This document shows positions 9,140-26,210 of a stretch of 64,000 nt of DNA, in pieces; position 1 is the first letter of the stretch, and each line of letters starts with the position of its first letter. Below the pieces are notes generated by a model that was not told the origin of the DNA, did not search any database, and saw only the letters and a program-made list of their open reading frames with translations. Position numbers and translations under genes: made by a program. The stretch covers positions 64,001 to 128,000 of the forward strand of contig CAVQJC010000005.1 in assembly GCA_963712745.1 (NCBI GenBank). Direction: 5' to 3'. This DNA comes from an uncultured Chloroflexia bacterium. GTDB lineage: Bacteria > Chloroflexota > Limnocylindria > Limnocylindrales > CSP1-4.

Positions 9140-9635
9140 GGGCATCCTCCCTCCGAGCCAGCTCGGCCAGTCGCTCGGCCTCCTCGCGCTCTTCCGTCGC
9201 GCGGGTCTCGGCTTCCAGCTTGAGGAGCTGCACGAGGGCGTCGAGGACTCGTTGCAGGCGTTCCTGCATCCGGCGTCGCACCAATCGAACGGCGAGGCCG
9301 GTCATCTCGGCGCGGACGGCGACGCGGGTCCCGGCCGAGCCGGACGCGAGGTTCCACGTCTGGCGCTCACCGAACACAAGGACGCGACCCTTCCATGAAA
9401 GCGTCCTGGGCGCGTCGACCTCGGTGATGCGGCACTTGAGCGTGCCGATCTCGGTCGAGAAGCGGAACCCGGCGCCGACCTCGAGCTCAGCGTCGAAGAC
9501 GGCGTGTCGCACCGCGGGGTTCCAGGTAGGCCACGAGGCGATGTCGGCGATGACCGTCCAGACCTCGCGGTCCGGCGCCGCGATGTCTATCTCCGCGAAC
9601 GCGCTCACGGGTGCTGACGACCGGGTCTGCTCCAC
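9132..9635 (-). CDS. SRPBCC/polyketide cyclase family protein
   Basis: EIDIAAPDREVWTVIADIASWPTWNP. Confidence 0.8.
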   Translation of the reverse strand: MEQTRSSAPVSAFAEIDIAAPDREVWTVIADIASWPTWNPAVRHAVFDAELEVGAGFRFSTEIGTLKCRITEVDAPRTLSWKGRVLVFGERQTWNLASGSAGTRVAVRAEMTGLAVRLVRRRMQERLQRVLDALVQLLKLEAETRATEEREEAERLAELARREDAHE

Positions 9636-9678
9636 CGGCCGATGCTACCGCGGCCGCGGGCGGGCCGGTGCGAGAAGG

Positions 9679-9753
9679 TGGTCGGGGTGGCGGGGATCGA
9701 ACCCGCGACCTCATGCTCCCAAAGCATGTGCGCTACCTCTGCGCTACACCCCG
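9679..9753 (-). tRNA. tRNA-Pro(TGG), intact, CCA encoded
   Basis: Reverse complement CGGGGTGTAGCGCAGAGGTAGCGCACATGCTTTGGGAGCATGAGGTCGCGGGTTCGATCCCCGCCACCCCGACCA: acceptor CGGGGTG/CACCCCG, D stem GCGC, anticodon stem CATGC/GCATG with loop TTTGGGA, T loop TTCGATC. Confidence 0.97.
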
Positions 9754-9772
9754 ATGGTGTTCGTGCGTGGAT

Positions 9773-9782
9773 AGGGTACACA
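9773..9782 (-). promoter_or_regulatory. Putative extended -10 promoter (TGTG-TACCCT) of tRNA-Pro; also present in most array repeats
   Basis: + strand AGGGTACACA about 20 nt upstream of the tRNA 5' end; the GGGTACAC core recurs in most repeat copies. Confidence 0.55.
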
Positions 9783-9883
9783 GCGCGGCTCGATGACGAC
9801 ACCGATGGGGCCTACACGGCTCGAACCGCGGTATCGTCGGGCAGCCTGCGCGCGATGGAAATGCCGGAGTGGGCAGCCACAGA

Positions 9884-10783
9884 TCAACCTCTGCCGATGA
9901 ACTCGAGGATGTCCGGGCAGAGGCGCTCGTCCGAGATGGCCTGCATATGGTCCTTGCCTTCGTAGACACACAGGGTGCAGTCAGGGATCAGGCTGGCGGT
10001 CTCGTCGAGATATCCCTCGGGGAACATGAAGTCGGCATCGCCGCCGATGAGCAGCACCGGGACACCGATCTCGGGCAGGACGGGTCGCGCGTCGAAGGCC
10101 ACCTCGGCCTCGCCCTCGATCAGCACGTCGCTGGCGAACTCGGGGTGCCCGCCGCGGAACCCAATCCGTCCCATCACCTGGCCGAACAGCCAGGCCAGGC
10201 CGGGAACACGAACCTGCGGGAAGTAGTCTTCGAACATCCCCCTGGCGGCTTCGACCGGTCGACCTTTGCTGAGGCGCTCGGCGAACCGGTAGTCGATGTG
10301 TTTGCCGCGCTCGCTCACCTCGTAGCCAGCCAAGGCGATGACGATGTGGTCGAAGCGATCGGGGTGGCGAGCCGCCAGATAGAAGCCGATGATTCCGCCG
10401 TATGACGTCCCGAGCGCCACGTCCACCTTGCCGCCCAATTCCGACTCGATGAACTCAGCGTAGTCGTCGGCCATGTCGGCGATGGAATGCCCCTGCGGCA
10501 TGCCCTGCTTGCGCATGACGTACCAGATCGTGTAGCCCTCGTCGATGAACCGGCGGAACGGGCGAAGCATCATCCGGAGACTGATACCAGCGGGGGCGAA
10601 GTTGCCCGGACCACCGGGCATGAGCAGGAGCGTCTTCGCTCCCTCGCCCCATCGCGCGTACGCCATGCGACTCTTGGACATGCCGGTGACCGGCCTCGGT
10701 GCTCCCATCCAGACCGCCCGGCGTCCGGCGAGGATGGCCACGCCAGCCACGAAGAACAGTGCGATGAGTCGTCTCATGATCAA
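9884..10783 (-). CDS. Alpha/beta fold hydrolase
   Basis: LLMPGGPG, LGTSYGG nucleophile elbow, IGGDADFMFP, GKDH. Confidence 0.85.
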   Translation of the reverse strand: MIMRRLIALFFVAGVAILAGRRAVWMGAPRPVTGMSKSRMAYARWGEGAKTLLLMPGGPGNFAPAGISLRMMLRPFRRFIDEGYTIWYVMRKQGMPQGHSIADMADDYAEFIESELGGKVDVALGTSYGGIIGFYLAARHPDRFDHIVIALAGYEVSERGKHIDYRFAERLSKGRPVEAARGMFEDYFPQVRVPGLAWLFGQVMGRIGFRGGHPEFASDVLIEGEAEVAFDARPVLPEIGVPVLLIGGDADFMFPEGYLDETASLIPDCTLCVYEGKDHMQAISDERLCPDILEFIGRG

Positions 10784-11628
10784 ACCCCTCTTTCGACTCG
10801 GACGGCGGCTTCCTCGGCTCGCGGCCTGGCGATCGCTCGCACCCGTACCGCCTCGGGCGAGGGAGTGGGCTCCCGACGGAGTTCGGTCGGCAGTTCCTGG
10901 CCGCCGACCCAGGCCTCAATCGTGCGGATGTGCAGGTCGGGTGCCTGTCTTTGCCAGCAGTGGTCAAGGCCGGGCGCGTACCAGGCCTCGCCGTGGGGCA
11001 TGAGCGCGGCAAGGGCCGCGTTGGACGGCCGGTACCAGGCCTCTTGCTCACCTGCGACGAGCAGCGTCGGGTTCGACGTCTCGGCGAGCGGCGGGAGGCG
11101 TTCCATGCTTCCCACGAAGGCACGCCAGAACGCGAGGCGTGACGCATCGCGCAGGTCAGCCTCATCCATGACATTCCCGAATAGCGCTCGGAACCACCGA
11201 GCGTGCTTGAAGGGCAGTGCCGCGGTCAGCACGTACAGCAGAGGAAGCCTCGACGCTCGCGGCCAGTGGATGGGCGTGCCGTCCGCGATCACCCGATCGA
11301 CCAGTTCCGGATGGCGACTCAGCAAGGTAAGCGCGAGTGTCGCCCCCCAGGAGAGTCCCACCACGTGGACCAGCTGCCCTGGGACCCTCGATCCGATGAG
11401 CTCGGCCAGCAGCGCGACGATATGCCCGTTCGATGACGGTGCAAGGTGGTTGCTGCGTCCGAACCCCGGCAGGTCGGGGGCCAGGCAGTGGAAGTGGCTG
11501 AGCTTGGTCATGTGCCCTTGCCAGATGCGCCCGCTCTGACCCATCCCGTGGATGAAGAGGATGTCCGGTGAGCCCGGTGTCCCTGACTCCTCCACGTACA
11601 TGCCACCCAGGTACTTGGGGTGGCTCAT
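10780..11628 (-). CDS. Alpha/beta fold hydrolase
   Basis: FIHGMGQSG, APDLPGFGRS, VGLSWGA, PGLDHCW. Confidence 0.88.
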   Translation of the reverse strand: MSHPKYLGGMYVEESGTPGSPDILFIHGMGQSGRIWQGHMTKLSHFHCLAPDLPGFGRSNHLAPSSNGHIVALLAELIGSRVPGQLVHVVGLSWGATLALTLLSRHPELVDRVIADGTPIHWPRASRLPLLYVLTAALPFKHARWFRALFGNVMDEADLRDASRLAFWRAFVGSMERLPPLAETSNPTLLVAGEQEAWYRPSNAALAALMPHGEAWYAPGLDHCWQRQAPDLHIRTIEAWVGGQELPTELRREPTPSPEAVRVRAIARPRAEEAAVRVERGV

Positions 11629-12137
11629 CTCGTCACCCCGACGGTGTCCTCTTCGGAGTCAGACCGCGGTTCCAGGACCACGACCGCCATCTCGCGCGAC
11701 AGCCTGGCGGCATCACTGTCGATGTCGCACATGAAGCCCACGCCGGACCGCTTGCCGAAGTCGCGCCACAGGGCCCACAGGCGCTTCCGTTCATCGCCCT
11801 CCGCCGCCCGTGCCCGAACGGGATGGATCCCATCTTTCAGCCGGACGACGGCATCGGGGCAAGCCTGGAGGTTGAGCCACCACGCAGGGTCCGCGTCGGA
11901 CCACCCGTTGAACGGGATGATGACGAGGTTCGCGCCATCCTCCAGGTAGCCGATGATCGCGCTCCGCTCCCTGCCCGAGTGGCGACCGACCGTCATGAGA
12001 CACATCTCTCCCCAACGATCGGATCTCGGGCGTGATAATGCGAGGCGCCCTCCCGAGAGCCGATGGACGGTGCGCTGGGCAGTCCCGAACCCACGGAAGA
12101 ACCAGGGAGGAGGCAGGCGCCGACGCTCGCTGCTCAT
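11625..12137 (-). CDS. F420-dependent (deazaflavin) nitroreductase/quinone reductase family protein
   Basis: LMTVGRHSGRER, NGWSDADPAWWLNLQACPDA, ARAAEGDERKRLW; ATG at 12137 overlaps the MTase stop. Confidence 0.82.
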   Translation of the reverse strand: MSSERRRLPPPWFFRGFGTAQRTVHRLSGGRLALSRPRSDRWGEMCLMTVGRHSGRERSAIIGYLEDGANLVIIPFNGWSDADPAWWLNLQACPDAVVRLKDGIHPVRARAAEGDERKRLWALWRDFGKRSGVGFMCDIDSDAARLSREMAVVVLEPRSDSEEDTVGVTR

Positions 12138-12778
12138 GCCGACGCATCTGCCGGCTTCGTGCCTCGGGCGAGCAGCGCCTTCGAGAACACCGGCATCACC
12201 GAGACGGTGACATCGCCGAAGCCGGCCTCCTCCACCAGCCGCTGTGCGGCGTCGTCGGTCCACTGCCACTGGCCCCACTTGTCGACCACGCCCTCGGTCG
12301 CGCCGGCCGGCGCCTCCCCTGCCTCACCCAGGGTGACTGCCAGCCGACCGCCCGGACGCAGGACCCGGTGCATCTCCTTCAGCGCCGCCAGCGGATCGGG
12401 GAAGAACTTCATGGCGTTGACGGAGGTAGCGACGGTGAAGCGGCCGTCGTCCCAGGGCAGATGGTCGGCATCGCCCTCGACGATCTCCGCGGTGCCCGCG
12501 GTGATGCGCTCGGCCAGGCGGCGCCGGGCCGCCTCGAGCTGCAGCGCCGAGGCGTCGAGACCAGCGACGTAGCGCACACCTCCCGCGTGGTCGACGAACA
12601 GCGTCGCCGAGCCACATCCGACGTCGAGCAGCTCATCGTCGGGCTGCAGGTCCAACTCCGCGGCGATCGCCTCGTGGAATGGACGGCTGCTTCTCGGCAT
12701 CAGCCTGACGCCGAGTCGTCCGGGCAGGCCGTGCGGTACTCCGAAGAATGACATCCACCAACTTCGGCGCAGACCCAT
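12134..12778 (-). CDS. Class I SAM-dependent methyltransferase
   Basis: LLDVGCGSA, GLDAS, GDADHLPW, EMHRVLRPGG. Confidence 0.9.
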   Translation of the reverse strand: MGLRRSWWMSFFGVPHGLPGRLGVRLMPRSSRPFHEAIAAELDLQPDDELLDVGCGSATLFVDHAGGVRYVAGLDASALQLEAARRRLAERITAGTAEIVEGDADHLPWDDGRFTVATSVNAMKFFPDPLAALKEMHRVLRPGGRLAVTLGEAGEAPAGATEGVVDKWGQWQWTDDAAQRLVEEAGFGDVTVSVMPVFSKALLARGTKPADASA

Positions 12779-12901
12779 CGCACGTCCCCCCATGCACACG
12801 GGCCGGGTTCGCCAGTGGCTCGGCGCGGTCCTCAGCGGCCATGATCGACGGGCCGCGCGTCCTCGCCTCCCGCTAGGTCCGATTATCCCGTGGCAGCCAA
12901 G
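12779..12901 (-). promoter_or_regulatory. Conserved cassette leader, copy 1 (promoter-like box plus structured 5' UTR)
   Basis: - strand CTTGGC..CACGGGATAAT..GCGGGAGGC..GCGGCC-loop-GGCCGC..GAGCCACTGGCGAACCCGGCCCG..GGGGGACGTGCG-ATG; recurs at about 18630, 24765, 34035, 37472 and 48494. Confidence 0.65.
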
Positions 12902-12965
12902 CCCGATGTCTGGAAGGGGCGGCTAATCGGGCAGCTATGCCGCCATCATCTGGCGTCGACCGGAT

Positions 12966-13176
12966 CACGCTCGCGAACCGCACAATAATCGACGCCTTCG
13001 CCGCTCGGGGCGCCACGCTCACAACCCCCGCAGCCTTCGCCGCTCGAGCCTGAAAGGCTCCCAAAGCATGTGCGCTACCGCTGCGCTACACCCCGACGTG
13101 GTTCGTGCGTGATTAAGGGTACACAGCGCGCCTCGATAGCGACGCCGATGGGCCTACAGCACTCGAACCGCGCGAT
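12966..13176 (-). repeat. tRNA-Pro-derived att-like repeat R1
   Basis: CACGCTCGCGAACCGCAC..GCCTTCGCCGCTC x2..GCTCCCAAAGCATGTGCGCTACCGCTGCGCTACACCCCG (13057-13095, tRNA 5' half)..GGGTACACAG..CCTACAGCACTCGAACCGC. Confidence 0.93.
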
Positions 13177-13312
13177 ATGCCGAACGGGTCAGTCTCGCGC
13201 CATGGGCCTCGATCCGGAGCATGCCAAGGTCGTATCCATGGGCCCCAGGTCGGCGCTGTGCGACTCGAGGCGACGCTGCCGCCAGCCGGACGCTCGTCGT
13301 TCCTCCGCCAGG

Positions 13313-14500
13313 CTACTCGCGACCCGACTGCCGTGCGAGGTCGCGCTTGAACTCATCGATCTCGGGGACCGAGATGACCGACTCGCTGAGCCAATCGGGC
13401 AATCCACCCACCGCAGCGAGGTCGACGTTCGAGCCACCCATGCGCTGGACGTACGCTGGATCGGTCACGATGAACTCCCAGGGATGGACCTCCGCCATAC
13501 GGGTCACGATCTGCTCCGCCGTGATGTTCACGACGGTGTAGTCCTGGGCTAGCGTGAACGGGCCGCGGTAGCCGGTGCGGAGACCATCGAGAATCGGCTG
13601 CGGCGTCCCCGGAGCGATCATCGCGTGATAGCCCATGGCCATGCCCGGCTTGGTCGCCTCGAAGACCTTCGCGGCGGCCTGCGGTGCGGTGTGCATCGTC
13701 CAGGCGACGGTCCTCGCGATGAGCTCGGGCCAGCCCATCTTCTCCATGTACATCTCCGGCGGATTGAAGATCTCATGGATGAGGAGATCGACGCCCTTGG
13801 CATTCTCGACGGTGAAGGTCGATGGTTCGCAATCGCCGGCGTACACCAGCGACAGCCCCGCGTAGTCCAGGCGGTAGCCGACCGCACCGAAGATGGAATG
13901 TGGCACCGGGAACGCGCGGATGGCGACGCCGTCCTCTTCGTAGATGAGGGTCGCCTCATCCGCCGCGAAACGATGCGGCGTGATCTCGTACACGCGCGGA
14001 TCCAGCCCGGCCTTGGCGCGATCATGCCAGGTCGCCAGACGCTTGATGGCGTCCACGACAGCCTCGGTGGACTCACCCTCGCCGCTGCCGTCGGGTCCGT
14101 GGATGTGCATCGGCTCGAGCCGCCCGTTCGTCTGGCCGAAGTCGTAGTAGACGGGCAGGTCGGCGATGTGATCGAGGTGGAAGTGGGTGATGAAGAACCG
14201 TGTCGCCTTCCAATACGGCAGTCGCAGCGTGTTGAAGGCCATGTTCGTGCCCGGGCCGGCATCGAAGATGAAGCTCTGTCCGTTGCCGCACTCCACGAGC
14301 CAGCCGGCGCAGCCCTGGCCCCGCCGTGCCGGATAGCCGGTGCCCAGGGCGGTGACGCGGACCTCCGCCCTCGCCAACTCCTCGGACTCGGGCGTATAGC
14401 GGTCCGGATAGGTACGTCGCTCAGCAGACTCGTCCTTCACCACGACCGGATGCGTCGTCAGCGGCACGCTGTGGTACGGCTCGGGTAGTCGCTCAGCCAT
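13313..14500 (-). CDS. MBL-fold metallo-hydrolase (RNase Z/arylsulfatase-like)
   Basis: LGTGYP, FDAGPG, ITHFHLDHIAD, PVPHSI, YAGDCEP, LIHE; AGGGAGG RBS before ATG 14500. Confidence 0.88.
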   Translation of the reverse strand: MAERLPEPYHSVPLTTHPVVVKDESAERRTYPDRYTPESEELARAEVRVTALGTGYPARRGQGCAGWLVECGNGQSFIFDAGPGTNMAFNTLRLPYWKATRFFITHFHLDHIADLPVYYDFGQTNGRLEPMHIHGPDGSGEGESTEAVVDAIKRLATWHDRAKAGLDPRVYEITPHRFAADEATLIYEEDGVAIRAFPVPHSIFGAVGYRLDYAGLSLVYAGDCEPSTFTVENAKGVDLLIHEIFNPPEMYMEKMGWPELIARTVAWTMHTAPQAAAKVFEATKPGMAMGYHAMIAPGTPQPILDGLRTGYRGPFTLAQDYTVVNITAEQIVTRMAEVHPWEFIVTDPAYVQRMGGSNVDLAAVGGLPDWLSESVISVPEIDEFKRDLARQSGRE

Positions 14501-14664
14501 CTTCGTGCCTCCCTTGGGCTGTGGTTGAACCTGCTCGACATCGACGGTACCGGGTTTGGCCAGGGTCGACGCGGCAGAGGTTCCCCGGCAGCGTGCAACC
14601 GATGCAGGCAATCGCTACGGTAAGGCCCACCGGCCTCACGTCGCAGCCATACAGAGGTACATGT

Positions 14665-17001
14665 ATGCCAGAGCACGATCCAGTCGTGGATGGATCTACG
14701 CTTCCGTTTCCCAAGCCCAAGTCTGGCAGCGTGGCCGGCCGCACGATGCAAGAGTCCATCTACGACCCGGCGCCCCCACCACAGCGGCTGCCGGCTGATG
14801 CGCCGAACATCCTGATCATCCTGATCGACGATGCCGGGCCAGCGCTGCCGGAAGCGCTGGGCGGTGTCGTGCACACCCCGACGCTGGAGCGAGTCCTCTC
14901 GGAGGGGATCGGGTTCAACCGCTTCCACACGACAGCCATGTGCTCGCCCACCAGGGCCTCGTTGTTGACGGGCCGCAACCACCACCGGGTCGGCAGCGGC
15001 GTGATGACCGAGTTCGCCAACGACTGGGATGGCTACTCGGGCGTCATCCCCCGCAGTAGCGCCCTCCAGGCCGAGGTGCTGCGACAGTACGGCTACGCCA
15101 CCGCCGCGTTCGGCAAGTGGCACAACACCCCTGGGATCGAGACGTCGGCGGCCGGGCCGTTCGACAATTGGCCGGCTCGCATCGGGTTCGAGTACTTCTA
15201 TGGGTTCCTCTCGGGTGAAGCCTCACAGTACGAACCGAACCTCGTCCGCAATACGACCCCGGTCCTGCCGCCGAAGACGCCGGAGGAGGGATATCACCTG
15301 AGCGAGGACCTCGCCGAAGACGCGGTCCGCTGGCTCCAGACGCACAAGGCGGTGCAGCCCGACAAGCCCTTCTACCTGTACTGGGCGAGTGGAGCCGTCC
15401 ATGGCCCCCACCACGTTCACAAGCAGTGGGCTGACAAGTACCGTGGCATGTTCGACGACGGCTGGGACGCCTATCGTGAGCAAGCGTTCGAAGGCGCCAA
15501 GGCGAAGGGCTGGATCCCGGAGACCGCCGAGTTGACGCCCCGGCATCCGACGATGCCGGCGTGGGACGATCTCCCAGAGGACCAGAAGCCGTTCCAGCGC
15601 CGCCTGATGGAAGTGTTCGCCGGCTTCGGCGAGCACGCCGACGTACAGGCGGGCAAGGTCATCGATGAGATCGAACGCCTCGGCTACGGGGATAACACCC
15701 TGGTCGTCTACATCTGGGGTGACAACGGATCATCGGGCGAGGGCCAGCAAGGAACCATCAGCGAGTTGATGGCGGTGAACGGTATCCCCTCCACGGTCGA
15801 GCAGCACATCGAGGCCCTCGACACGCTCGGCGGGCTCGATGTGCTTGGCTCACCGCTCGTCGACAACATGTACCACGCTGGGTGGGCGTGGGCGGGCAGC
15901 GCCCCCTACCAGGGCATGAAGCTGCTCGGATCGCACTTCGGTGGAACCCGGAACCCGATGGCCATCCGATGGCCCGCGAGGATCACACCCGACGCGAGAC
16001 CGCGATCGCAGTTCCACCACTGCAACGACCTCGTGCCCACTATCTACGAGCTGCTTGGCATCACGCCGCCGCAGACCGTGAATGGAGCCCCCCAGGACCA
16101 GATCGATGGGGTGAGCCTGGCCTACACCTTCGATGACCCTGACGCCGAAGGGCGCCTTCGCACGCAGTACTTCGACATCATGGGTAGCCGGGCGATCTAT
16201 CACGACGGCTGGATGGCCTCCGCCATCGGGCCACGGCTGCCCTGGGTCCCAGGTCTCGACCCGAAGATGTTCGAGTGGACACCCGACAAGGACGTCTGGG
16301 AGCTCTACAACCTCGAGGAGGACTGGTCGCAGGCCCATGACCTCGCCGGGGCGATGCCCGAGAAGCTGGCGCAGATGAAGGAGGTCTTCCTCATCGAAGC
16401 GGCCAGGAACAAGGCCCTGCCGATCGGCGGCGGGCTATGGATCCCCTTCCATCCTGAGTTCCGTGCCGCATCGCCGCAGACCGAATGGACCTTCGCAGGC
16501 GACCTCGTTCGCATCCCGGAGCCCGTCGCGCCGGGGCTGGGCAACAGGCCCAACGTCGTCACCATCCTCGCGGACGTGCCCAGCGACGCCACCGGTGTGC
16601 TCTACAAGCTTGGTGCTGGCTCTTCTGGCGTCACGCTGTTCGTCGAGGACGGCCACCTGGTCTACGAGTACAACCTGTTCATCATCCAGCGAACCCAGAT
16701 CCGTTCCGCCACCAAGCTTCCGGTCGGCAAGGTGGAGATCCGAGTGACGACCCTGCCGGTCGAACCGCGCCCCTCGGGTCCCCTGCAGGTGATGCTCGAG
16801 GTCAACGGCGACGCCGTGGGCGAAGGCACCGTCCCGGTCAGCATCCGTACGAGCTTCACGGCCAACGACTGCCTGGACATCGGGCAGGCGCTCGGCTCTC
16901 CAGTCTCGCTCGACTACCGTGACCGGGCACCGTTCAAGTTCAACGGCACGATCGAGCAGGTCCAGGTGAGGTACCTACCACCGGCGCAGCCGTCAGCGTA
17001 G
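14665..17001 (+). CDS. Arylsulfatase (formylglycine-dependent)
   Basis: PNILIILIDDAG, CSPTRASLLTGRNHH, FGKWHN, IWGDNG. Confidence 0.93.
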   Translation: MPEHDPVVDGSTLPFPKPKSGSVAGRTMQESIYDPAPPPQRLPADAPNILIILIDDAGPALPEALGGVVHTPTLERVLSEGIGFNRFHTTAMCSPTRASLLTGRNHHRVGSGVMTEFANDWDGYSGVIPRSSALQAEVLRQYGYATAAFGKWHNTPGIETSAAGPFDNWPARIGFEYFYGFLSGEASQYEPNLVRNTTPVLPPKTPEEGYHLSEDLAEDAVRWLQTHKAVQPDKPFYLYWASGAVHGPHHVHKQWADKYRGMFDDGWDAYREQAFEGAKAKGWIPETAELTPRHPTMPAWDDLPEDQKPFQRRLMEVFAGFGEHADVQAGKVIDEIERLGYGDNTLVVYIWGDNGSSGEGQQGTISELMAVNGIPSTVEQHIEALDTLGGLDVLGSPLVDNMYHAGWAWAGSAPYQGMKLLGSHFGGTRNPMAIRWPARITPDARPRSQFHHCNDLVPTIYELLGITPPQTVNGAPQDQIDGVSLAYTFDDPDAEGRLRTQYFDIMGSRAIYHDGWMASAIGPRLPWVPGLDPKMFEWTPDKDVWELYNLEEDWSQAHDLAGAMPEKLAQMKEVFLIEAARNKALPIGGGLWIPFHPEFRAASPQTEWTFAGDLVRIPEPVAPGLGNRPNVVTILADVPSDATGVLYKLGAGSSGVTLFVEDGHLVYEYNLFIIQRTQIRSATKLPVGKVEIRVTTLPVEPRPSGPLQVMLEVNGDAVGEGTVPVSIRTSFTANDCLDIGQALGSPVSLDYRDRAPFKFNGTIEQVQVRYLPPAQPSA

Positions 17002-17066
17002 CCGAGGTCGTAGCCCGACCGCGTCGAATCGGGCTACAGGAGCAGGCGTGAGTTGCTCAAGGCCGG

Positions 17067-17277
17067 CACGCTCGCGAACCGCACAATAATCGAGGCCTTC
17101 ACCGCTCAGCTCGCCACGCTCGAAGCCCCGGAGCCTTCACCGCAAACCCCTCCTAGGCTCCCAAAGCATGTGCGCTACCGCTGCGCTACACCCCGATGGC
17201 GTCTGTGCACGGATAGGGTACACAGCAGGGCTCGATAGCGACACCAGAGAGCCTACAGCGCTCGAACCGCACAATAA
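17067..17277 (-). repeat. tRNA-Pro-derived att-like repeat R2
   Basis: Full copy; GAACCGCACAATAA present at both ends. Confidence 0.93.
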
Positions 17278-17429
17278 CGGCTGCAGAGCGCAAGTGCTCA
17301 TCCCGCGACTGGGGTGTGACGGGCGTGGTCGCCAGATGCCCTTCCATACCGTCGTGACCAAGCACCATCACAGGCGGACGGGGAACCCGGGTCCTCGGCT
17401 TGGGCCGAGGACCCGATCCGGCAAGTCAG

Positions 17430-18629
17430 CTACTCGGGAGGTTCAGGCGGAGCACCTTCGAAGATGACACCTTCGAGATCGGTCATGCCGTTGGGTGCGT
17501 GCGTCCAATCGACCATGTACGTCAAGCCCTCGTAGGCGCCCGTGCCTTCGAGGACGGCGAAGCTGTGTCCTGAGCCGTCCATCGCACGCGTGCCGTTGCG
17601 CGGCCCGACCCATGAGCCGTCTGGGCCCTCGAGTTCATAGGTGCCCCAGGTCGGTGACCCGATCCCGTACTGGCAGTCGCAGCTCCAGACCGTGGTCGCC
17701 CGGCCCGTCACCCGCGGGTCACTGGCGGTGTCGCGGCACGACATGGTCAGCCCGTCGATGGCCCAGATGCCGTCATGGAAGGTGACCCGGGGCGGAGCGC
17801 TCCAGTCCGGCGTGCAGGGACTGATCGACCCGGTCACCCAGGCACCAGCGTCGGGCGCCGGTGACATCGCGCCGTCGTCCCACCCTTGGATCGCCTCCCA
17901 GGCGACGCGCTGGAGGTACGCGGCCTCCTCCTCGCTCACACCCTCGGGCCGGTAGGTCAGGCCCTCGGGACTGTGCCCGTAGACCGTGGCGTAGATGACC
18001 GCCGCCGCGAGGTACAGGCCGTGGACGCTTGGGTGGCTCATGTCGGGACCGAGCATGTCGAGCTCTGGTCGCTCGATGAGCGAATCGATCATCGCCATCG
18101 CGACGGGGGCGATGTCGGCGTCCAGCTCGTCCTCGATCTGACGGTGCGCAGCCTCGATGCCCGCATGGCCCATCCAGTCCGCGAGGATGAAAGGCCAGGT
18201 CATGTAGTAGACCGGCCGTGCACCGCCGTCACGTACCGCTTGATCGAGAGTGCGGGCGCTCTCGAGGAACGTCTCGACCGCCGTCTCAGGGTCGTAGTTC
18301 TCCGGGATGTCGCCCTGGAGCACGACAACGTCAGGTCCCCTCTCTCGAACCCGCTCGGCCGAGACTCTACTCACGAAGGACTTCAGTGGCGCACCACCCG
18401 CCGTGATCGAGTCCACTTCGATCGTCCGAGGTGGGTCCTCCGACGCGGCCAGCCCTGCGACGTGGGACCACACCCCATCGTCCCAGAACGAGAAGCTGTT
18501 CCCGACGAAGAGCAGGCTGTCGGGGCTGGCTGGCAGTTCCTCGCTCTCCGTGGCGGCCGCCGTACCTCCCAGTCCGCTGAGCAGCGCCAGGATGATCGCC
18601 CCGACCAGAGTCAGCCGCTGCGTGCCCAT
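17430..18629 (-). CDS. Secreted SGNH/GDSL-like hydrolase with extra C-terminal domain
   Basis: Signal peptide, LLFVGNSFS, DVVVLQG, DMSHPSVHGLYLAAAVIY. Confidence 0.75.
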   Translation of the reverse strand: MGTQRLTLVGAIILALLSGLGGTAAATESEELPASPDSLLFVGNSFSFWDDGVWSHVAGLAASEDPPRTIEVDSITAGGAPLKSFVSRVSAERVRERGPDVVVLQGDIPENYDPETAVETFLESARTLDQAVRDGGARPVYYMTWPFILADWMGHAGIEAAHRQIEDELDADIAPVAMAMIDSLIERPELDMLGPDMSHPSVHGLYLAAAVIYATVYGHSPEGLTYRPEGVSEEEAAYLQRVAWEAIQGWDDGAMSPAPDAGAWVTGSISPCTPDWSAPPRVTFHDGIWAIDGLTMSCRDTASDPRVTGRATTVWSCDCQYGIGSPTWGTYELEGPDGSWVGPRNGTRAMDGSGHSFAVLEGTGAYEGLTYMVDWTHAPNGMTDLEGVIFEGAPPEPPE

Positions 18630-18750
18630 AGCATTCCCCCATCTGGTTCGCGGGGCGGGTTCGCCAGTGGCTCGACACGGTCCAGGCGGCCAGTTCTGGG
18701 GCTGTGCCTCATCGCCTCCCGTTACCACTGATTATCGCGCGGCCGCCAAG
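18630..18750 (-). promoter_or_regulatory. Conserved cassette leader, copy 2
   Basis: + strand GGGTTCGCCAGTGGCTC..GCGGCC..GCCTCCCG..GATTATC..GGCCGCCAAG. Confidence 0.6.
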
Positions 18751-18828
18751 CCGAGTCGTGGTGGCTCGGATCCACCGCCTTGGTCGGACATCGGGCAGAA
18801 CTCCGGCGCCGAAGACAAGCCCGCAGAT

Positions 18829-19025
18829 CACGCTCGCGAACCGCACAATAATCGAGGCCTTCGCCGCTCTGGCTATCGTGCGTGGAACCCCGGAGCCTTC
18901 ACCGCAAACCCCTCGTAGGCCCCCAAAACATGTGCGCTACCTCTGCGCTACACCCCGACGAGTTCGTGCGTGACTAGGGTACACGGCACTCGTCTGAAGC
19001 GACAGCAGAGGGCCTGCAGCGCTCG
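18829..19025 (-). repeat. tRNA-Pro-derived att-like repeat R3
   Basis: Type-B arm (CCGCAAACCCCTCG); D-loop identical to the native tRNA (CTACCTCTGCGC). Confidence 0.9.
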
Positions 19026-20008
19026 CTGTCTAGTCCCTGTCGCATCGAGATCACGGTCGTTCCCTGGGCATGCCCGTCCGCGACGTGCCCGACGGCGCTC
19101 GCCCCTTCGTCCAGCGTGGATGCCAAGTCGATGACCGGACTGAGCCTGCCGGCCTCCACCAGTTCCGCAAGGGCGATCAAGTCGCTTGCGCGGTAGGCAT
19201 GGACGACGGGTCGAGCCTGCTGACGTACGACCCACGAGGACACGAGCACTCGGATGATCCGCCCCAAGGGCCTGGTCCAGCCGCCGGCAGGCGCTCCGTT
19301 GGACAGGAGGAGCCCGTTGGTGTCGAGGGCGCGCCTGATATCAGACAACGAACGGGTCCCCACGTTGTCGAGGATGAGGTCGTACCGTTGCTCGCCCTGG
19401 GTGAAGTCATCCTGGGTGTAGTCGATCACGTGGTCGGCGCCGATCGATCTCACGAGTTCGAGGTTCCGTGTGCTGCAGACAGCCGTCACTTCAGCCTCGA
19501 ACGCCTTGGCGAGCTGTACCGCGAACGTGCCCACACCGCCGGAGGCACCGTTGATGAGGACTCGCTGACCCGGTTGGACATTCCCAGCGTCGCGCAGAGC
19601 CTGAAGAGCGACCATCGCTGAGACCCCGAGGGCGGCGGCGTATTCGAACGAGGTTGCAGCAGGCTTCGGGGCCAACTTGTCCGCCGATGTCACGACGTAC
19701 TCAGCGAAGGCGCTCTTGCACCAACCGAACACCTGATCGCCCGGCGCGAGCTTCGTCACGTTTGGGCCGACGGCCTCGACCGTGCCCGCGATGTCCGTTC
19801 CCGGGATCCGTGCCTTGGGCCCGCGCAGCCCGTAGATAGGACGGAACAGGTATGGCACCCCCCGGATGCCGTGGACATCGCCAATGTGGATCGATGCGGC
19901 GCGGACGCGGATGAGCACCTCGTCGTCGTCGGGCGTCGGTTGAGGGACCTCGCCGACGCCTAGGACATCCCGCGGTTCTCCGTAGTCCTCCTGGATGAGT
20001 GCCCTCAC
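18974..20008 (-). CDS. NAD(P)-dependent medium-chain alcohol dehydrogenase/quinone reductase
   Basis: GTG start VRALIQEDYGEP, PGTDIAGTVEAVG, VLINGASGGVGTFAVQLAK, GADHVIDY; stop lies inside repeat R3. Confidence 0.88.
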   Translation of the reverse strand: MRALIQEDYGEPRDVLGVGEVPQPTPDDDEVLIRVRAASIHIGDVHGIRGVPYLFRPIYGLRGPKARIPGTDIAGTVEAVGPNVTKLAPGDQVFGWCKSAFAEYVVTSADKLAPKPAATSFEYAAALGVSAMVALQALRDAGNVQPGQRVLINGASGGVGTFAVQLAKAFEAEVTAVCSTRNLELVRSIGADHVIDYTQDDFTQGEQRYDLILDNVGTRSLSDIRRALDTNGLLLSNGAPAGGWTRPLGRIIRVLVSSWVVRQQARPVVHAYRASDLIALAELVEAGRLSPVIDLASTLDEGASAVGHVADGHAQGTTVISMRQGLDSERCRPSAVASDECRVP

Positions 20009-20110
20009 TGATGCCTCCGCAGGGGTACCTTGATGCTCCAAGGCACGGTGTCGCCGCTGTGTGCCTGATCCAAGGGCCATAGGACACCTAGCCCGGAGGA
20101 GACTCAGACG

Positions 20111-20479
20111 ATGGATGAGACGAGGATCGTGCTCGCAGGGCTGTGGGTGGCCCTGATGCTGACGTACCTCCTGGGCGACGTGCTCCGGATATTCGCGGGC
20201 GACGTCGAGCCCGGCAAGCTAGCCGGCGGCGTCCAGGGAAGGCCAGTCATGTGGCTGGGTATCGCGGTCATCATGCTGATCCCGATCGTCATGATCGTGT
20301 TGACCCTGACAGTCGACTATCCCGTGATCCAATGGCTGAACATCGTTGCCGCTGCTGGCCTGGTGGTGTTCAACCTCGTCGGCCTGCCCTACAAGGGCGC
20401 CTACGACAACTTCCTGATCATCGTCAGCCTCGTCTTCAATGCACTGACGATCTGGTACGCATGGAACTGGGTCGCCTAG
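20111..20479 (+). CDS. DUF6326-like membrane protein
   Basis: RIVLAGLWVALMLTYLLGDVL, ends IWYAWNW; GGAGGAG RBS. Confidence 0.72.
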   Translation: MDETRIVLAGLWVALMLTYLLGDVLRIFAGDVEPGKLAGGVQGRPVMWLGIAVIMLIPIVMIVLTLTVDYPVIQWLNIVAAAGLVVFNLVGLPYKGAYDNFLIIVSLVFNALTIWYAWNWVA

Positions 20480-20532
20480 AGCCCTGCGTGTGAGGGCGAG
20501 CTCGAGGTGTGGCATGGGGTGCACAACCGAGC

Positions 20533-20745
20533 CACGCTCCCGAACCGCACAATCATCGACGCCTACACCGCTCCGCGCGCCACGCTCAAGACCCCGAAGC
20601 CTTCGCCGCTCGAGCCCGAAAGGCTCCCAAAGCATGTGCGCTGCCGCTGCGCTACACCCCGACGAGGATCGTGCGTGGATAGGGTACGCAGCGCGGCGCT
20701 CAGGCGGTATCCGAGGGTCTACAGCGCTCGAATCGTGCGATGATC
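20533..20745 (-). repeat. tRNA-Pro-derived att-like repeat R4
   Basis: Full copy with GCTCCCAAAGCATGTGCGCTGCCGCTGCGCTACACCCCG. Confidence 0.92.
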
Positions 20746-20849
20746 GTGGCTTCGCCCGAGACCCCGCCTGGGCCCCGAAGGTTGAGCGGTACTTCGACGC
20801 TCACTCGCACATTCAATCTGTTGCCCAGTCGCGACCGCTTTCCCGAGTG

Positions 20850-21146
20850 CTATCTGCTACGGAGCCAGCGCTCCAGATCGGCTCGGTCGACGATGCCGAG
20901 TACCAGGACCACGTGGTCGGCGTCGATGACGTCGTACATCACGCGGTAGTCGCCGATGCGCAACCGGTGGAAGGTGTCGTCGGCACCATGGATGGTCTTC
21001 ACGGACTTGCCTGCGACGCGTCCGGGGCGAGCAACGTTATGCGCGAGTCGCTCAAGTGCTCGGCGGATGCGATCACGATCAGCGTCACCGAGCTTCTTGA
21101 ACTGACGGGCCGCCGACCGCGAGAGCCGGACCTCGTAGGCGGTCAG
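20850..21146 (-). CDS. RelE/ParE-family toxin (CTG start, absent from ORF track)
   Basis: Manual translation MTAYEVRLSRSAARQFKKLGDADRDRIRRAL..FHRLRIGDYRVMYDVIDADHVVLVLGIVDRADLERWLRSR; CTGA overlap with the antitoxin stop, GGAGG 7 nt upstream. Confidence 0.85.
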   Translation of the reverse strand: MTAYEVRLSRSAARQFKKLGDADRDRIRRALERLAHNVARPGRVAGKSVKTIHGADDTFHRLRIGDYRVMYDVIDADHVVLVLGIVDRADLERWLRSR

Positions 21147-21379
21147 TCCAGATCCTCCAGCCTGACCGTCCGCCGCTTGGCGTGGTCGGCGCGGGCGAGT
21201 CGACGCTGGCGGACGAACTCGTCGGCATTGGCAAGGACGAGGTCCTCGGCCTCCTCGACCGGCAACAGGACCGCGGCAGGGCGGCCGCGCCGCGTGACGA
21301 CGTAGGCGGAGCCGCTCTCGACCTCGTCGATGACCGATGAGGCGGTCGCCTTCAGTTCCTTGATCCCGATCTCCGCCAT
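21143..21379 (-). CDS. Phd/YefM-family antitoxin
   Basis: MAEIGIKELKATASSVIDEVESGSAYVVTRRGRPAAVLLP. Confidence 0.9.
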   Translation of the reverse strand: MAEIGIKELKATASSVIDEVESGSAYVVTRRGRPAAVLLPVEEAEDLVLANADEFVRQRRLARADHAKRRTVRLEDLD

Positions 21380-21484
21380 GTCGTACCTCCTGCCCAAGTG
21401 GTCACCGAGGTGGTCACCTTAGCACAGGGGACGAGCGTGCCCAGGACCTTCGCAATTCGTGGAGGCAGGTCCCTGGGCTCGAGC

Positions 21485-21685
21485 CACGCTCCCGAACCGC
21501 ACGATGATCGAGGCCTTCACCGCTCGGCCCGTCACGCTCGGGGCACCGGAGCCTTCACCGCTCGAGCTTGGAAGGCTCCCAAAGCATGTGCGCTGCCGCT
21601 GCACTACACCCCGACGAGGTCCGTACGTAGATAGGGTACACAGCGCGCGTCCGAAGCGACCGCGAAGGGCCTACGGCGCTCGAAC
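21485..21685 (-). repeat. tRNA-Pro-derived att-like repeat R5
   Basis: Full copy. Confidence 0.92.
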
Positions 21686-21717
21686 TCAGCTGTGGCTGGA
21701 GCCTCCGGTGGAGGGCG

Positions 21718-22896
21718 CTACTCCGACGACAGCATCTCGGCGAACGGGGCGAACACCGGGTCGATCGCCCCCAGCGCCTTCGCGACCACCCCGAGGTCCG
21801 AGCAGGTGGTCGTGAAGACGACCGCGCTCAGGCCGCTATCGGGGTCTTGACCGACCAAGCCCTCCCAGCCGATGGCTTCTCCTTCGTGACCGACCAGGTC
21901 GCCGAGCTTCATGATGCCGAGGCCGTACTGCAGATCGAGCCCGCCTGTCTCCGAACGGAGCCGCGCGTTCACGGCTTCCTCAGACAGGAGCGCGTTGCCG
22001 CTCATGGATGCCGCCCAGATACCGAGGTCTCCGATCGTGGAATGCATCCCGCCGCCAGCCTGGCCGTAGCTGGCATTCCAGTCGGTCAGGTCCGTGCCCG
22101 GTGGCACCGGATCCGCGCCGTCGCCCAGGAGCTCGCCGACGCAGGGTTGGCTCATATAGCCGTGGGCGACCGGCTCGGGCAGCGCGGTGTCCTCGTTGGG
22201 CGGCAGGGCGGTATCGGCCATGCCCAGCGGCTCGGTGACGCGCTCGCGGATGAGTTCCTGGATGGTCTGGCCGGTGAGTGTCTCGGCGATCTCCTGGAGG
22301 GCGATGTAGTTGGTCGTGCTGTAGCCGCTGGTACCCGGCGGTTCGACCTCGCCGTCGGCACCGAAACCGATGAGCTGATCGGACGACCACGCGGTGTCCG
22401 GAGCCTGGACGTGGGCAGCGACGGCCGCATCAGGCACGTTCATGTAGTCGGGAATGCCGCTGGTCATACCCAGCAGCTGCTCGATGGTGATGCCCGCCAG
22501 GTTGGGGTGTCGCTCGGCAAGGTCGGGGTCGACATCGGCCACGGTGTCAGCAAGTGCGAGCTTGCCCTCATCGATGAGCTGGAGCATGACCGTGGCCATG
22601 AACGTCTTGCTGACGCTGCCGATGCGGAAGTGGTCGTCGATCGACGCAGGACGTCCCGCGGCGACGTCGGCGAGGCCATACGCCTGCTGGTACACGCCGC
22701 GTTCAGGGTCCCAGACGCCGATGTAGATGGCCGGCACCTCAGGGTGCTGTTCCATGACGGCGGCGATGTCGGTATCGATGGCAGCGGTGTCCTCGGCGGA
22801 CATGGGCTCGCTCGGCAGCTCGACGTCCGCAGCAGCGACCGGAGCGGCCAGGGTCAGGGCGAGGAAGGTGGTCGTGAGCAGCGTGACTCGGGACAA
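21718..22896 (-). CDS. Secreted serine hydrolase (beta-lactamase class C/D-Ala-D-Ala peptidase family)
   Basis: TTG start after AAGGAG; FRIGSVSKTF (SxxK), LLGMTSGIPDY, YSTTNY, GHEG. Confidence 0.88.
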   Translation of the reverse strand: MSRVTLLTTTFLALTLAAPVAAADVELPSEPMSAEDTAAIDTDIAAVMEQHPEVPAIYIGVWDPERGVYQQAYGLADVAAGRPASIDDHFRIGSVSKTFMATVMLQLIDEGKLALADTVADVDPDLAERHPNLAGITIEQLLGMTSGIPDYMNVPDAAVAAHVQAPDTAWSSDQLIGFGADGEVEPPGTSGYSTTNYIALQEIAETLTGQTIQELIRERVTEPLGMADTALPPNEDTALPEPVAHGYMSQPCVGELLGDGADPVPPGTDLTDWNASYGQAGGGMHSTIGDLGIWAASMSGNALLSEEAVNARLRSETGGLDLQYGLGIMKLGDLVGHEGEAIGWEGLVGQDPDSGLSAVVFTTTCSDLGVVAKALGAIDPVFAPFAEMLSSE

Positions 22897-22995
22897 CTGG
22901 GTCTCCTTGGGAAGGGCGAATTGCGAGCCGATGATGCCAGACCCCATCCGATGCGGCCATCGATCACGCGACCGCCCTGATGGTCAACGACGTGT

Positions 22996-23153
22996 CGCGC
23001 TCCCGAACCGCACGATGATCGAGGCCTTGGCCGCAAACCCCTCGCAAGCTCCCAAAGCTGTGCGCTAGCGCTGCGCTACACCCCGACGTGGTTCGTGCGT
23101 GACTGGGGTACACGGGAGGGCTCGATGGCGATACCAAGGGGCCTCACAGCGCG
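22996..23153 (-). repeat. tRNA-Pro-derived att-like repeat R6 (internally deleted arm)
   Basis: Only one GCCTT..CCGC unit remains; tRNA half degenerate (AAAGCTGTGCGCTAGCG). Confidence 0.88.
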
Positions 23154-23202
23154 CGGGAAAACAGGCCTGCCCCCGGCGGTGCGTCGAGCTGAGCTCCTGG
23201 TA

Positions 23203-24072
23203 CTACGTGGGGAGATCTGAGCGTCGCAGCCGCTCGACGGTGACTGGTGACGGCGCGGCTTCGGGTCGCAGCTCCGTCGGCAGTTCCTGTCCGGTCAGCC
23301 AGGCCTCGACCATGCGGACGTGCAGGTCGGGTGCCGTGAGCTGCCAGCAATGCCCCAGACCGGGCGCGTACCACGCCTCGGCGTCCTGCATGACGGCCGC
23401 CAGTGCCGCATTGGAGGCTCGGACGCCGAGTCCGTCGAGGTCATCGGTCTCCGCCTCCCCGGCGACGAGGAGCGTCGGGCACGAGGCGCCGGTCGCGGCA
23501 TAGGACCGGAAGGCGTCGGCGACTGTGCCCAGGTACGCCCGGCGCGACGCGGCGCGCACATCCTCCTCGCCCAGGAGTTCACCGAGCCTCCTGACCACTG
23601 GCCGGGTGTGAAGGAACGGCGTCACCATGACGGTGGCCAGGAGCGTCAGGGCACGCGCGCCCCTCGGGACGATGACTGGGACGCCATCGGTGATCGCCCG
23701 CTGGACGCGGTCGGGGTGGCGGTCCAGCAGGGCATGGATGACCACGCCACCCGAGCAGAGACCGACCACGCTCGCGCGACCCGAAGGGACGTGCGACCCG
23801 ATGAGCGCGGCCACGATGTCCGCCGTCTTCCGCAGCGACGCTGCGGGCAGGTGATTGCTGCGCCCGAACCCAGGCAGATCCGGGGCCAGGCAGTAGAAGT
23901 CGGTGAGGCCCGTCATGTGCGTTCGCCAGAACCGGGCACTCTGGCCGGCCCCGTGGAGGAAGACGACAGCTGGGGACTTCGGGTCGCCAGACGCCTCCAC
24001 GTACATGCCATGGGGCCCGGGCTCCGCCTTGCGGACCGTGGCGGAGTGGTCGAGCACCTCGGGCGCGTTCAT
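23203..24072 (-). CDS. Alpha/beta fold hydrolase
   Basis: FLHGAGQS, APDLPGFGRS, VGLCSGG, PGLGHCW. Confidence 0.85.
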   Translation of the reverse strand: MNAPEVLDHSATVRKAEPGPHGMYVEASGDPKSPAVVFLHGAGQSARFWRTHMTGLTDFYCLAPDLPGFGRSNHLPAASLRKTADIVAALIGSHVPSGRASVVGLCSGGVVIHALLDRHPDRVQRAITDGVPVIVPRGARALTLLATVMVTPFLHTRPVVRRLGELLGEEDVRAASRRAYLGTVADAFRSYAATGASCPTLLVAGEAETDDLDGLGVRASNAALAAVMQDAEAWYAPGLGHCWQLTAPDLHVRMVEAWLTGQELPTELRPEAAPSPVTVERLRRSDLPT

Positions 24073-24764
24073 GCCACGGACGCCTTGACGGGCATCTGTC
24101 GCTCTGGGGCGCTGGCCACCGCGGTGGATGCCGGTTTGACAGCCCGGACGAGCTGGGACTTGGAGGGCACCGGCAGGACCGTGACGCTGATGTCGGTGAA
24201 GCCTGCCTCCTCGACAAGCCTGGCCGCGTCGACGTCGCTCCAGAACCAGACGCCCCAAGCGTCGCGCGTACCCGACTTGTCGGTCCGCCCCAAGAGGGCC
24301 TTCGTGTTGTCGCCCATGGTGAAGACGGCGCGTCCACCGGGTCGCAGGACGCGGTGCATCTCAGCCAGCGCCCCTCCCGGGTCGGACGTGAACTTCATGG
24401 CGTCGAGGGAGGTGACGACGCCGAAGCGGGAGTCCTCCCAGGGCAGGTCCGCAGCATCGCCGAGGACGATCTCGGCCGTCCCCGCGGCGATGCGTTCGGC
24501 CAGACGCTTTCGGGCCATCTCGATCTGGAGCTCCGAGGCATCGATGCCGGCCACGTAGCGGACGTGAGCGGCGTGCTCGGCGAAGAGCACCGCCGATCCG
24601 CAGCCGACGTCGAGCAACTCGTCGTCGGCCTGGAGGTCGAGCTCGGCGGCCATGGCGCGATGGTACTTGCCCTTCATCGACGCCAGCAGCCGGGCACCGA
24701 TCCAGCCGAGCGGACCGTGGGGCACTCCCAGCAACGCGTAGTCGAACGATCTGCGCAGACCCAT
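24069..24764 (-). CDS. Class I SAM-dependent methyltransferase
   Basis: LLDVGCGSA, GDAADLPW, EMHRVLRPGG. Confidence 0.9.
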   Translation of the reverse strand: MGLRRSFDYALLGVPHGPLGWIGARLLASMKGKYHRAMAAELDLQADDELLDVGCGSAVLFAEHAAHVRYVAGIDASELQIEMARKRLAERIAAGTAEIVLGDAADLPWEDSRFGVVTSLDAMKFTSDPGGALAEMHRVLRPGGRAVFTMGDNTKALLGRTDKSGTRDAWGVWFWSDVDAARLVEEAGFTDISVTVLPVPSKSQLVRAVKPASTAVASAPERQMPVKASVA

Positions 24765-24883: not shown

Positions 24884-24950
24884 ACCATGGTGCGGTCGGA
24901 ACCTATCAGCCGGGCGGCAACGAGTGAGCATCATGCAGGCTGCCACGGAT

Positions 24951-25163: not shown

Positions 25164-25176
25164 GACGGCGGGCGGT

Positions 25177-26194: not shown

Positions 26195-26210
26195 GTCGTC
26201 CCTCCTTTGG

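Follow-up and report, generated by a model that had tools for sequence, protein, structure and literature searches.

Displaced tRNA-Pro 5′ halves delimit an array of integrase-less mini-cassettes in an uncultured Chloroflexia bacterium

What process could leave copies of the 5′ half of a tRNA gene, each with the region upstream of that gene, in front of the single intact copy? We addressed this question in a 64,000-nt stretch of DNA from an uncultured Chloroflexia bacterium (hereafter the window), which has a GC content of 67.8% and spans positions 64001–128000 of contig C5 in G000, a metagenome-assembled genome (MAG) of 20 contigs, 84.5% complete and with an estimated contamination of 5%. Here, displaced 5′ halves of tRNA-Pro(TGG) separate 18 small cassettes. 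We propose that this array probably arose as integrase-less cassettes, moved in trans, integrated one after another and site-specifically at the anticodon loop of the tRNA gene, in the rare reversed configuration.

The only tRNA gene of the window is tRNA-Pro(TGG), which was located by ARAGORN at 9679–9753 (− strand), has an encoded CCA and scores 71.5 bits against Rfam RF00005. ARAGORN found no second tRNA-Pro(TGG) in the G000 assembly, and the window has a single copy of the 3′ half of the gene, which includes the T arm and CCA. The 5′ half is a different matter. The segment from which this analysis started, 13057–13095 (− strand), reads CGGGGTGTAGCGCAGCGGTAGCGCACATGCTTTGGGAGC and equals nt 1–39 of the tRNA except for a C/A difference in the D loop. 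When three or fewer mismatches are allowed, a 23-nt piece of this segment has 16 matches in the window, every one on the − strand, against zero across 100 shuffles. Searching the window with a profile derived from these copies, we obtained 21 matches: the gene together with the arm 5′ of it, 16 displaced copies in which the 5′ half is present, and 4 pieces of an arm alone. All 16 displaced halves lie upstream of the intact gene in the same orientation, and the 80–100 nt (approximately) 5′ of every displaced copy align with the region upstream of the real tRNA.

The point at which the copies depart from the tRNA is constant. In 33 of 33 listed displaced copies (15 in the window and 18 in relatives, found by a 38-nt pattern), the similarity breaks right after GGGAGC, 2 nt beyond the anticodon loop, rather than at randomly varying positions. 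A first-pass annotation, made from the letters of the window alone, had proposed that the repeats duplicate the 5′ half and upstream region of the tRNA, lack the T arm and CCA and diverge 2 nt past the anticodon loop, all of which holds. Its reading of the D loop was also accurate: the tRNA-Pro gene and the third repeat (18919–18956) carry AGAGGTA, while the other 14 listed window copies carry AGCGG(T/C/G)(A/T), for which the annotation had given AGCGGTA in most copies. It overlooked, however, a second conserved arm on the other side of the 5′ half, so that the repeat measures approximately 215 nt and not approximately 115 nt.

Alignments of the copies define this junction unit, in − strand order, as a P arm, tRNA nt 1–38 and a B arm. 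The P arm (~86–100 nt) shares homology with the region 5′ of the real gene, starts with ATCGTGCGGTTCGAGCGCTGTAGG and holds a conserved TGTGTACCCTA, whereas the B arm (~90 nt) has no tRNA counterpart, contains two GCGGYGAAGG boxes and terminates in ATYATYGTGCGGTTCGCGAGCGTG. This terminus is a direct repeat of the P-arm start (either end of the unit thus has the box ATCGTGCGGTTCG) and, the tRNA part aside, is the most conserved stretch. The units are 72–89% identical to one another (BLAST); in the alignment, hardly any change is seen in the core and the distal B-arm box, whereas the intervening spacer drifts, a pattern that suggests selection for a protein-binding function. The ATCGTGCGGTTCG boxes and the two GCGGYGAAGG boxes could be sites for accessory proteins or pieces of a promoter. 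We rejected an RNA-structure reading of the unit, as RNAalifold found covariation in 1 of 38 predicted pairs and six B arms folded worse than shuffles (z +0.65 to +2.0). This is what would be expected of a protein-binding site in duplex DNA as opposed to a folded one. One weak terminator-like hairpin lies within a B arm (13003–12990).

The P arm directly 5′ of the intact tRNA occupies 9754–9834 (− strand; alignments, profile positions 7–127), on what would be the attR side, and includes TGTGTACCCTA with a TAnnnT hexamer. From there the 18-cassette array extends over 9835–46071 on the − strand, with intervals between units of 603–3,888 nt. Unit 1, the type example that contains the displaced half at 13057–13095, covers 12967–13179 (nhmmer, profile 4–214, E 1e-60). 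Further units were placed by the profile search, all on the − strand, at 17068–17278 (unit 2), 18830–19028 (unit 3, with the D-loop A allele of the functional gene), 20534–20745 (unit 4), 21486–21693 (unit 5), 24952–25163 (unit 7), 27748–27957 (unit 8), 29277–29487 (unit 9), 30336–30537 (unit 10), 34226–34436 (unit 12), 39453–39644 (unit 14), 40820–41025 (unit 15), 42912–43104 (unit 16) and 44679–44888 (unit 17). Three junctions are degenerate or partly deleted: unit 6 (22998–23151) has a 1-nt deletion in its 5′ half and a B-arm deletion between the two GCGGYGAAGG boxes, a P-arm-only remnant lies at 31141–31217 (profile 4–77) and a B-arm-only remnant at 37663–37759 (profile 118–214). In one relative, G009, junctions are reduced to the bare B-arm end box (L020, 13902–13948 and 15931–15970). 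Deletion between direct repeats within a unit would yield such reduced junctions, including that at 22998–23151, and would immobilize the cassettes concerned.

Unit 18 (46072–46188; alignment and profile search) has a truncated B arm and an upstream arm of another subtype (..ATTGTACGGTTCGCACGAA..), which resembles the arm beside the integrase in two relatives described below, G008 and G066. We considered this unit as the native far end of the array and ruled it out, given its integrase-proximal arm subtype and the genes beyond it, which encode MazF-like, HTH-cupin and glyoxalase-family proteins with homologues inside the arrays of relatives. Together with a P-arm remnant at 56908–56981 and a B-arm remnant at 58518–58599 (profile search), these genes indicate that 46189–58599 (− strand) is a probable older continuation of the array, which in decayed form probably runs on to approximately 58.6 kb.

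Could the unit instead be a dispersed regulatory repeat, a MITE-like promoter or leader module copied in front of genes, with its likeness to a tRNA a by-product? In 13 of the 18 cassettes, the gene that comes first past the B arm, downstream of the unit, is oriented like the tRNA. The P arm also has a −10-like hexamer where tRNA promoters of G000 have one: a TAnnnT hexamer starts 15–20 nt upstream of approximately 20 of 47 tRNA genes, and the P arm carries TACCCT at −25. Many copies end their B arm with TAT(C/T)GT, and the profile search placed partial or whole Pro-type units on five contigs of G000 besides C5. The conserved TAnnnT hexamer makes it plausible that the P arm holds a promoter; a sigma-70 consensus scan of 9600–21800 returned no promoter-like sites, although such a scan is uninformative at 68% GC. 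A dispersed module nevertheless fits poorly with units that are confined, in every relative examined, to arrays upstream of one tRNA, with a tRNA break at the classical anticodon-loop position and with homologous arms that flank integrase-bearing elements. Moreover, the first gene lies on the opposite strand in 4 of the cassettes (and is unclear in 1). We therefore regard this explanation as highly improbable.

The integrase-bearing elements come from relatives. In G008, a tyrosine recombinase of 312 aa (P0001) begins 121 nt upstream of the intact tRNA-Pro and is divergent from it, and the far end of the element, 5.9 kb away, is marked by part of the 5′ half, next to which comes a B arm that includes the conserved TTATCGTGCGGTTCGCG box. 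Elements of 3.3–32 kb, likewise with a B arm at the end, were seen in five more genomes that have an integrase at tRNA-Pro. P0001 combines a catalytic domain (PF00589) with a SAM-like core-binding domain at its N terminus. Among solved structures, the closest chain is XerD (1a0p, E 1.2e-20), yet P0001 scores far below the NCBIfam cut-offs for XerC (163.1 bits against 335) and XerD (144 bits against 329.6), and reaches 58 bits against a cut-off of 265 on the integron-integrase model TIGR02249. On these scores, P0001 is Xer-like but belongs to a separate family. A minimal architecture stands in G066 (L144; G066:C6 8868–12224), where a 3.36-kb element encodes only an Xer-like integrase and a 266-aa REP_ORF2-G2P protein (PF23343, E 3.4e-13), and lies nearest to the tRNA in an array that has four displaced halves. 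We discarded a rolling-circle Rep as a common helper, since this protein occurs in the G066 element only and had no homologue in G000 or the other loci examined.

Elements at another tRNA gene show what such an integrase may bring with it. Three tRNA-Arg(TCG) elements (in G019, G024 and G005; 9–17 kb) are flanked by direct repeats of tRNA nt 1–39 that are 100% identical, with the identity ending at the last anticodon-loop base. The sequences upstream of the two repeat copies are unrelated, indicating that both the upstream region and the 5′ half arrive with the element. The annotation had proposed that each incoming cassette supplies a new promoter and 5′ half, and both this arrangement and the geometry of G008 agree with that idea.

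We searched for further members of the integrase family. Relatives of P0001 were found in 10 of 49 genomes of the genus and were adjacent to a tRNA gene at 14 of 14 loci (Arg-TCG at 7, Val-GAC at 2, and Gly-CCC, Gly-TCC, Ala-GGC, Arg-TCT and Pro-TGG at 1 each). At 11 of these 14, the integrase is divergent from the tRNA and starts 101–124 nt from its 5′ end. A wider scan with the family alignment, covering one genome per prokaryote species, returned 292 relatives, of which the best 80 loci were kept. These are mostly from Chloroflexota (uncultured Chloroflexia, Candidatus Limnocylindrales/Limnocylindria, Dehalococcoidia and SAR202), with a few from Actinomycetota or other phyla. Orientation was counted at the 69 of these 80 that have at least 250 nt upstream of the integrase. 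The tRNA 5′ end faces the integrase at 61 of the 69, with gaps of 105–211 nt; the remaining loci have a co-directional tRNA (6), only a 5′ fragment of tRNA-Gly (1, L126) or nothing (1). tRNA-Pro(TGG) is the neighbour at 20 loci, among them those of the integrases closest to P0001.

On this basis, we propose the following mechanism. A circular element would carry an attP-like site of approximately 215 bp, made of a P arm with a tRNA-type promoter, tRNA nt 1–38 and a B arm. Recombination with the chromosomal gene, presumably within the anticodon loop, would join the promoter and 5′ half of the element to the resident 3′ half, and in this way the essential tRNA would be preserved. Its former promoter and 5′ half would move outward, fused to the B arm of the incoming element, and repeated rounds would generate the series [P arm, 5′ half, B arm, cassette]n, closing in [P arm, whole tRNA]. 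The recombinase would be a P0001-type, Xer-like tyrosine integrase, encoded in autonomous elements approximately 100–150 nt upstream of the target tRNA and divergent from it. The window cassettes would then be non-autonomous, integrase-less derivatives that are mobilized in trans, which is the most economical reading of the fact that both arms are common to the cassettes and the integrase-bearing elements. Cassettes may also insert at internal junctions of the array.

Comparison with relatives allowed us to ask whether cassettes have moved. Nine further genomes of the same genus share the flank downstream of the array (SRPBCC, DUF2568, a 99-aa open reading frame and GGDEF); in all nine the units lie upstream of tRNA-Pro(TGG), with 1 to approximately 10 junctions per genome. 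Cassette 13 of G000 (34437–37662) matches the cassette at rank 1 in G010 (88.8% over 2,439 nt) and at rank 3 in G021 (81.5%). The PIN/RHH cassette, at rank 15 in G000, matches rank 5 in G009 (94.9% over 688 nt), and the Phd cassette, at rank 5 in G000, matches rank 1 in G021 and rank 4 in G009. Orientation relative to the tRNA is kept in every one of the cross-genome matches. The core flank is only 70–83% identical to these relatives (75–79% for G009). Different ranks and, for some cassettes, an identity above that of the core flanks suggest that cassettes move as units.

The tRNA allele varies as well. The D-loop base of the functional gene is A in G000, G001, G008 and G022 and C in G009, G010, G013, G014, G021 and G024, and both alleles occur among displaced copies. 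Such variation between close relatives is what the annotation had predicted if rearrangement swaps tRNA alleles. It had further held that the newest cassette is the one that rebuilds the functional tRNA. The supply of a 5′ half by the element is supported, as described above, while the equation of newest with tRNA-proximal is not proven: mismatches of the displaced halves rise only weakly with rank from the tRNA (rho 0.46, p 0.08).

The small, shared cassettes also bear on a reading in which they are fossil islands, that is, decayed elements that each once carried an integrase and lost their mobility genes later, with no action in trans. Integrase-bearing elements of the same att type do exist, down to 3.4 kb, the array contains deleted or degenerate junctions (22998–23151, 31141–31217 and 37663–37759), G009 has its bare B-arm ends, and most array-bearing genomes lack a cognate integrase. 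Decay of this kind would nonetheless have to leave single-gene cassettes of 0.6–1.5 kb with complete 215-nt units on both sides, and the same small cassettes with similar limits at different ranks across genomes. It does not account for cassettes whose identity lies far above that of the core flank (94.9% against 75–79% for G009), and it demands 18 independent decays to single cargo genes, each losing exactly the integrase, which is unparsimonious. As a full explanation, we consider it unlikely.

Homologous recombination offers another way to shuffle cassettes: the units would have been made once by an integrase, and cassettes would now be exchanged by RecA-type recombination, for instance following uptake of DNA. 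Being long and 72–89% identical, the units may suffice for this; arrays persist in genomes without the integrase; and deletions between unit-internal direct repeats are observed. Even so, that range of identity makes a poor substrate for efficient recombination, and the near-invariant core and distal B-arm box beside a drifting spacer point to protein binding. Shuffling also leaves the origin of the units and their strict anchoring to the tRNA unexplained, and we judge it quite unlikely as the main process. Both fossil-island decay and homologous shuffling may well contribute beside integration in trans.

Several observations weigh against integration in trans. The window has no PF00589 or PF00239 match, that is, no tyrosine or serine recombinase by these domains, and no homologue of P0001 was found in G000 (at 84.5% completeness) or in most array-bearing relatives, including G009, G010 and G001 (90–91% complete). 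An integrase inside the island itself was seen only in relatives (G008, G065–G069 and others), and no tyrosine recombinase lies near the array in G009, G010, G014, G021 or G022. P0001 has no recognizable arm-binding domain, which leaves the conservation of the ~90-nt arms unexplained. The rise of mismatches with distance from the tRNA, which would mark an age gradient along the array, is not significant. The integrase stands beside an intact tRNA in 67 of the 69 loci, which is odd if integrase-less cassettes often insert at the tRNA later; this placement fits a sole self-mobile member that usually integrates last, and fits equally well the insertion of cassettes at internal junctions. Finally, public metagenomes, in which contigs are short and broken at repeats (four runs), showed neither circular cassettes nor empty sites or excision joints. 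Parts of the stretch are present in 20 public runs from sediment, marsh, soil and rhizosphere, as short Logan contigs. The only joint shared by three of the runs (21519 to 27986, side 32) carries no weight here, being best explained by a contig end that matches the short direct-repeat box. A 25-nt junction pattern had 0 matches in viral contigs.

What do the cassettes carry? Between the tRNA and 46072, the 18 cassettes (603–3,888 nt) encode alpha/beta hydrolases, a sulfatase, beta-lactamase-fold and metallo-beta-lactamase (MBL)-fold proteins, S-adenosylmethionine (SAM) methyltransferases, a zinc-type alcohol dehydrogenase, a short-chain dehydrogenase, F420H2-dependent quinone reductases, and DUF1254/DUF1214 and DUF389 proteins. 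Parts of toxin–antitoxin systems include a PIN protein with its RHH partner (39911–40733) and a Phd/YefM antitoxin (21143–21397); a MazF/PemK-like toxin lies at 49962–50510, and the MazF cassette is the first, tRNA-adjacent cassette in G024. Four paralogous modules that are 70–77% identical stand in separate cassettes (10734–13172, 23224–25150, 31957–34428 and 35204–37759). Each has an alpha/beta hydrolase and a riboswitch-led methyltransferase, to which an F420H2 quinone reductase or an MBL-fold protein may be added. Six matches to c-di-GMP-II variant riboswitches exceed the Rfam gathering score (RF03169 five times, RF03170 once), all on the − strand, at 12792–12879, 18644–18728, 24775–24861, 34049–34135, 37486–37572 and 48507–48590. 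Five of the six begin 87–101 nt past a B-arm end, just 5′ of cassette genes that mostly encode SAM methyltransferases. RF03169 has 45 matches in G000 as a whole, 37 of them over the cut-off, which seems very high for a single genome. No ligand is known for the RF03169 and RF03170 variants.

Is the tRNA-Pro array an isolated case? On the order of 50 displaced tRNA halves are present in G000, at no fewer than 7 tRNA genes. PF00589 has four matches in this genome, two XerC/D-like ones approximately 40 kb apart on C4 and one each on C12 and C17, so that only two tyrosine recombinase matches lie beyond the XerC/D-like pair. We tentatively suggest, as a possibility that falls short of the probable, that this Chloroflexota lineage uses tRNA genes as integron-like platforms, at which Xer-like integrases insert and excise a shared pool of integrase-less mini-cassettes. 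Each insertion would rebuild the essential tRNA, possibly swap its allele and pass the displaced promoter to the neighbouring cassette.

Displaced halves of other types were noted in the same genome. Outside the window, at G000:C5:295866–362286, a tRNA-Thr(CGT) gene is followed by copies of its 3′ half over approximately 66 kb. C5 has 10 such copies, and another 3 are on C2 and C9; the array is of the usual 3′ type, and contig C5 has no PF00589 match. Extra halves belong to Val-GAC (5′, seven), Gly-TCC (3′, seven), Lys-TTT (5′, two), Arg-TCG (5′, one) and Asn-GTT (3′, two). The tRNA-Val(GAC) copies have the 5′-type architecture and are located on C8 (73133–94074), C16, C9 and C10 (position 7833); their downstream arm is their own, conserved over approximately 110 nt and with a perfect hairpin, GCCCTCAC..GTGAGGGC. 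Pro-type units stand near Val-type units on C8 and C16. At G000:C17:373739–373903, a 55-residue remnant resembling the N-terminus of P0001 is found approximately 170 nt upstream of tRNA-Lys(TTT). On both C1 and C2, tRNA genes follow one another in the order Ala, Ile, Ser, Ser, Arg, Ser, Ser. With the 5% contamination, this duplication suggests that the MAG may combine pieces of two strains, in which case genome-wide repeat counts would be inflated.

Integration into tRNA genes is textbook knowledge, and almost all known cases replace the 3′ end of the gene and involve self-sufficient islands. Here, it is the 5′ end and the promoter that appear to be replaced, and tiny integrase-less cassettes are stacked at least 18 deep. 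Such arrays may account for a flexible and sizeable share of the genome in these Chloroflexota from soil and sediment. The integrase family is large and has a predictable target (the 5′ half of a particular tRNA), a property of practical interest for tools that integrate DNA site-specifically.

Among the closest known systems are tRNA islands with a reversed target orientation and a displaced 5′ fragment. Table 1 of Islander (PMC4383910) gives 159 islands with a 5′ fragment and 3,760 with a 3′ fragment, and recombination at the 5′-distal position is described as ‘considerably less frequent’ in a passage of PMC6563490. The Islander text on tandems gives only four of three or more islands, requires an integrase in each member and counts up to 19 islands per genome (PMC4383910). 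The array shares with these islands an intact tRNA gene, co-oriented displaced 5′ fragments upstream of it, a break at the canonical anticodon-loop sublocation and, in the relatives analysed here, a tRNA-proximal tyrosine integrase. Unlike them, it has 16 fragments at one tRNA, integrase-less intervening units of 0.6–3.9 kb and an element-borne att region of approximately 215 nt with conserved arms on both sides.

Tycheposons also integrate successively at one tRNA, leaving partial tRNAs between elements and pushing older ones outward; as described in the preprint (bioRxiv 10.1101/2020.12.28.424599), each has its integrase, often with replication or packaging genes, and there are 1–2 elements per genome on average. 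Successive integrations at one tRNA and the partial tRNAs left between them are thus common to both systems, whereas the present case concerns integrase-less mini-cassettes, a Chloroflexota lineage and the 5′ half of the tRNA. Cis-mobilizable elements (CIMEs) and other integrase-less satellites of integrative elements are non-autonomous, with att sites at their borders that match those of an autonomous relative; CIMEs occur in small numbers and are large. The window cassettes resemble them as att-bounded, non-autonomous units that the integrase of an autonomous relative could move, and differ in being very small and at least 18 in series, with a mobilization that we infer. In the literature that we searched, we found no description of such a series of 5′-half, integrase-less mini-cassettes or of the P0001 family, although one may still be in print.

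The resemblance to integrons is broader. Both form one-directional arrays of many small cassettes, mostly with one or a few genes, bounded by a conserved recombination unit, with adaptive enzymes and toxin–antitoxin parts as cargo, and the candidate recombinase here is Xer-like. Clusters of integron cassettes without an integrase, which the present array resembles in this respect, are known as CALINs, and attC sites are imperfect palindromes of 57–141 nt that fold as single strands. By contrast, no IntI lies beside the present array, P0001 scores far higher on the XerC and XerD models (163 and 144 bits) than on that of the integron integrase (58), and the ~215-nt unit, with covariation in a single pair of 38, is not an attC-like folded palindrome. 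Should the cassettes indeed move in trans, the array would represent a second, independently evolved route to integron-like gene capture. In place of the single Pc promoter that serves a whole integron array, each unit appears to bear a promoter of its own, which would arrive with each cassette, and the anchor is an essential tRNA gene that needs to be rebuilt at each insertion. The likeness to integrons is therefore one of organization, not of membership.

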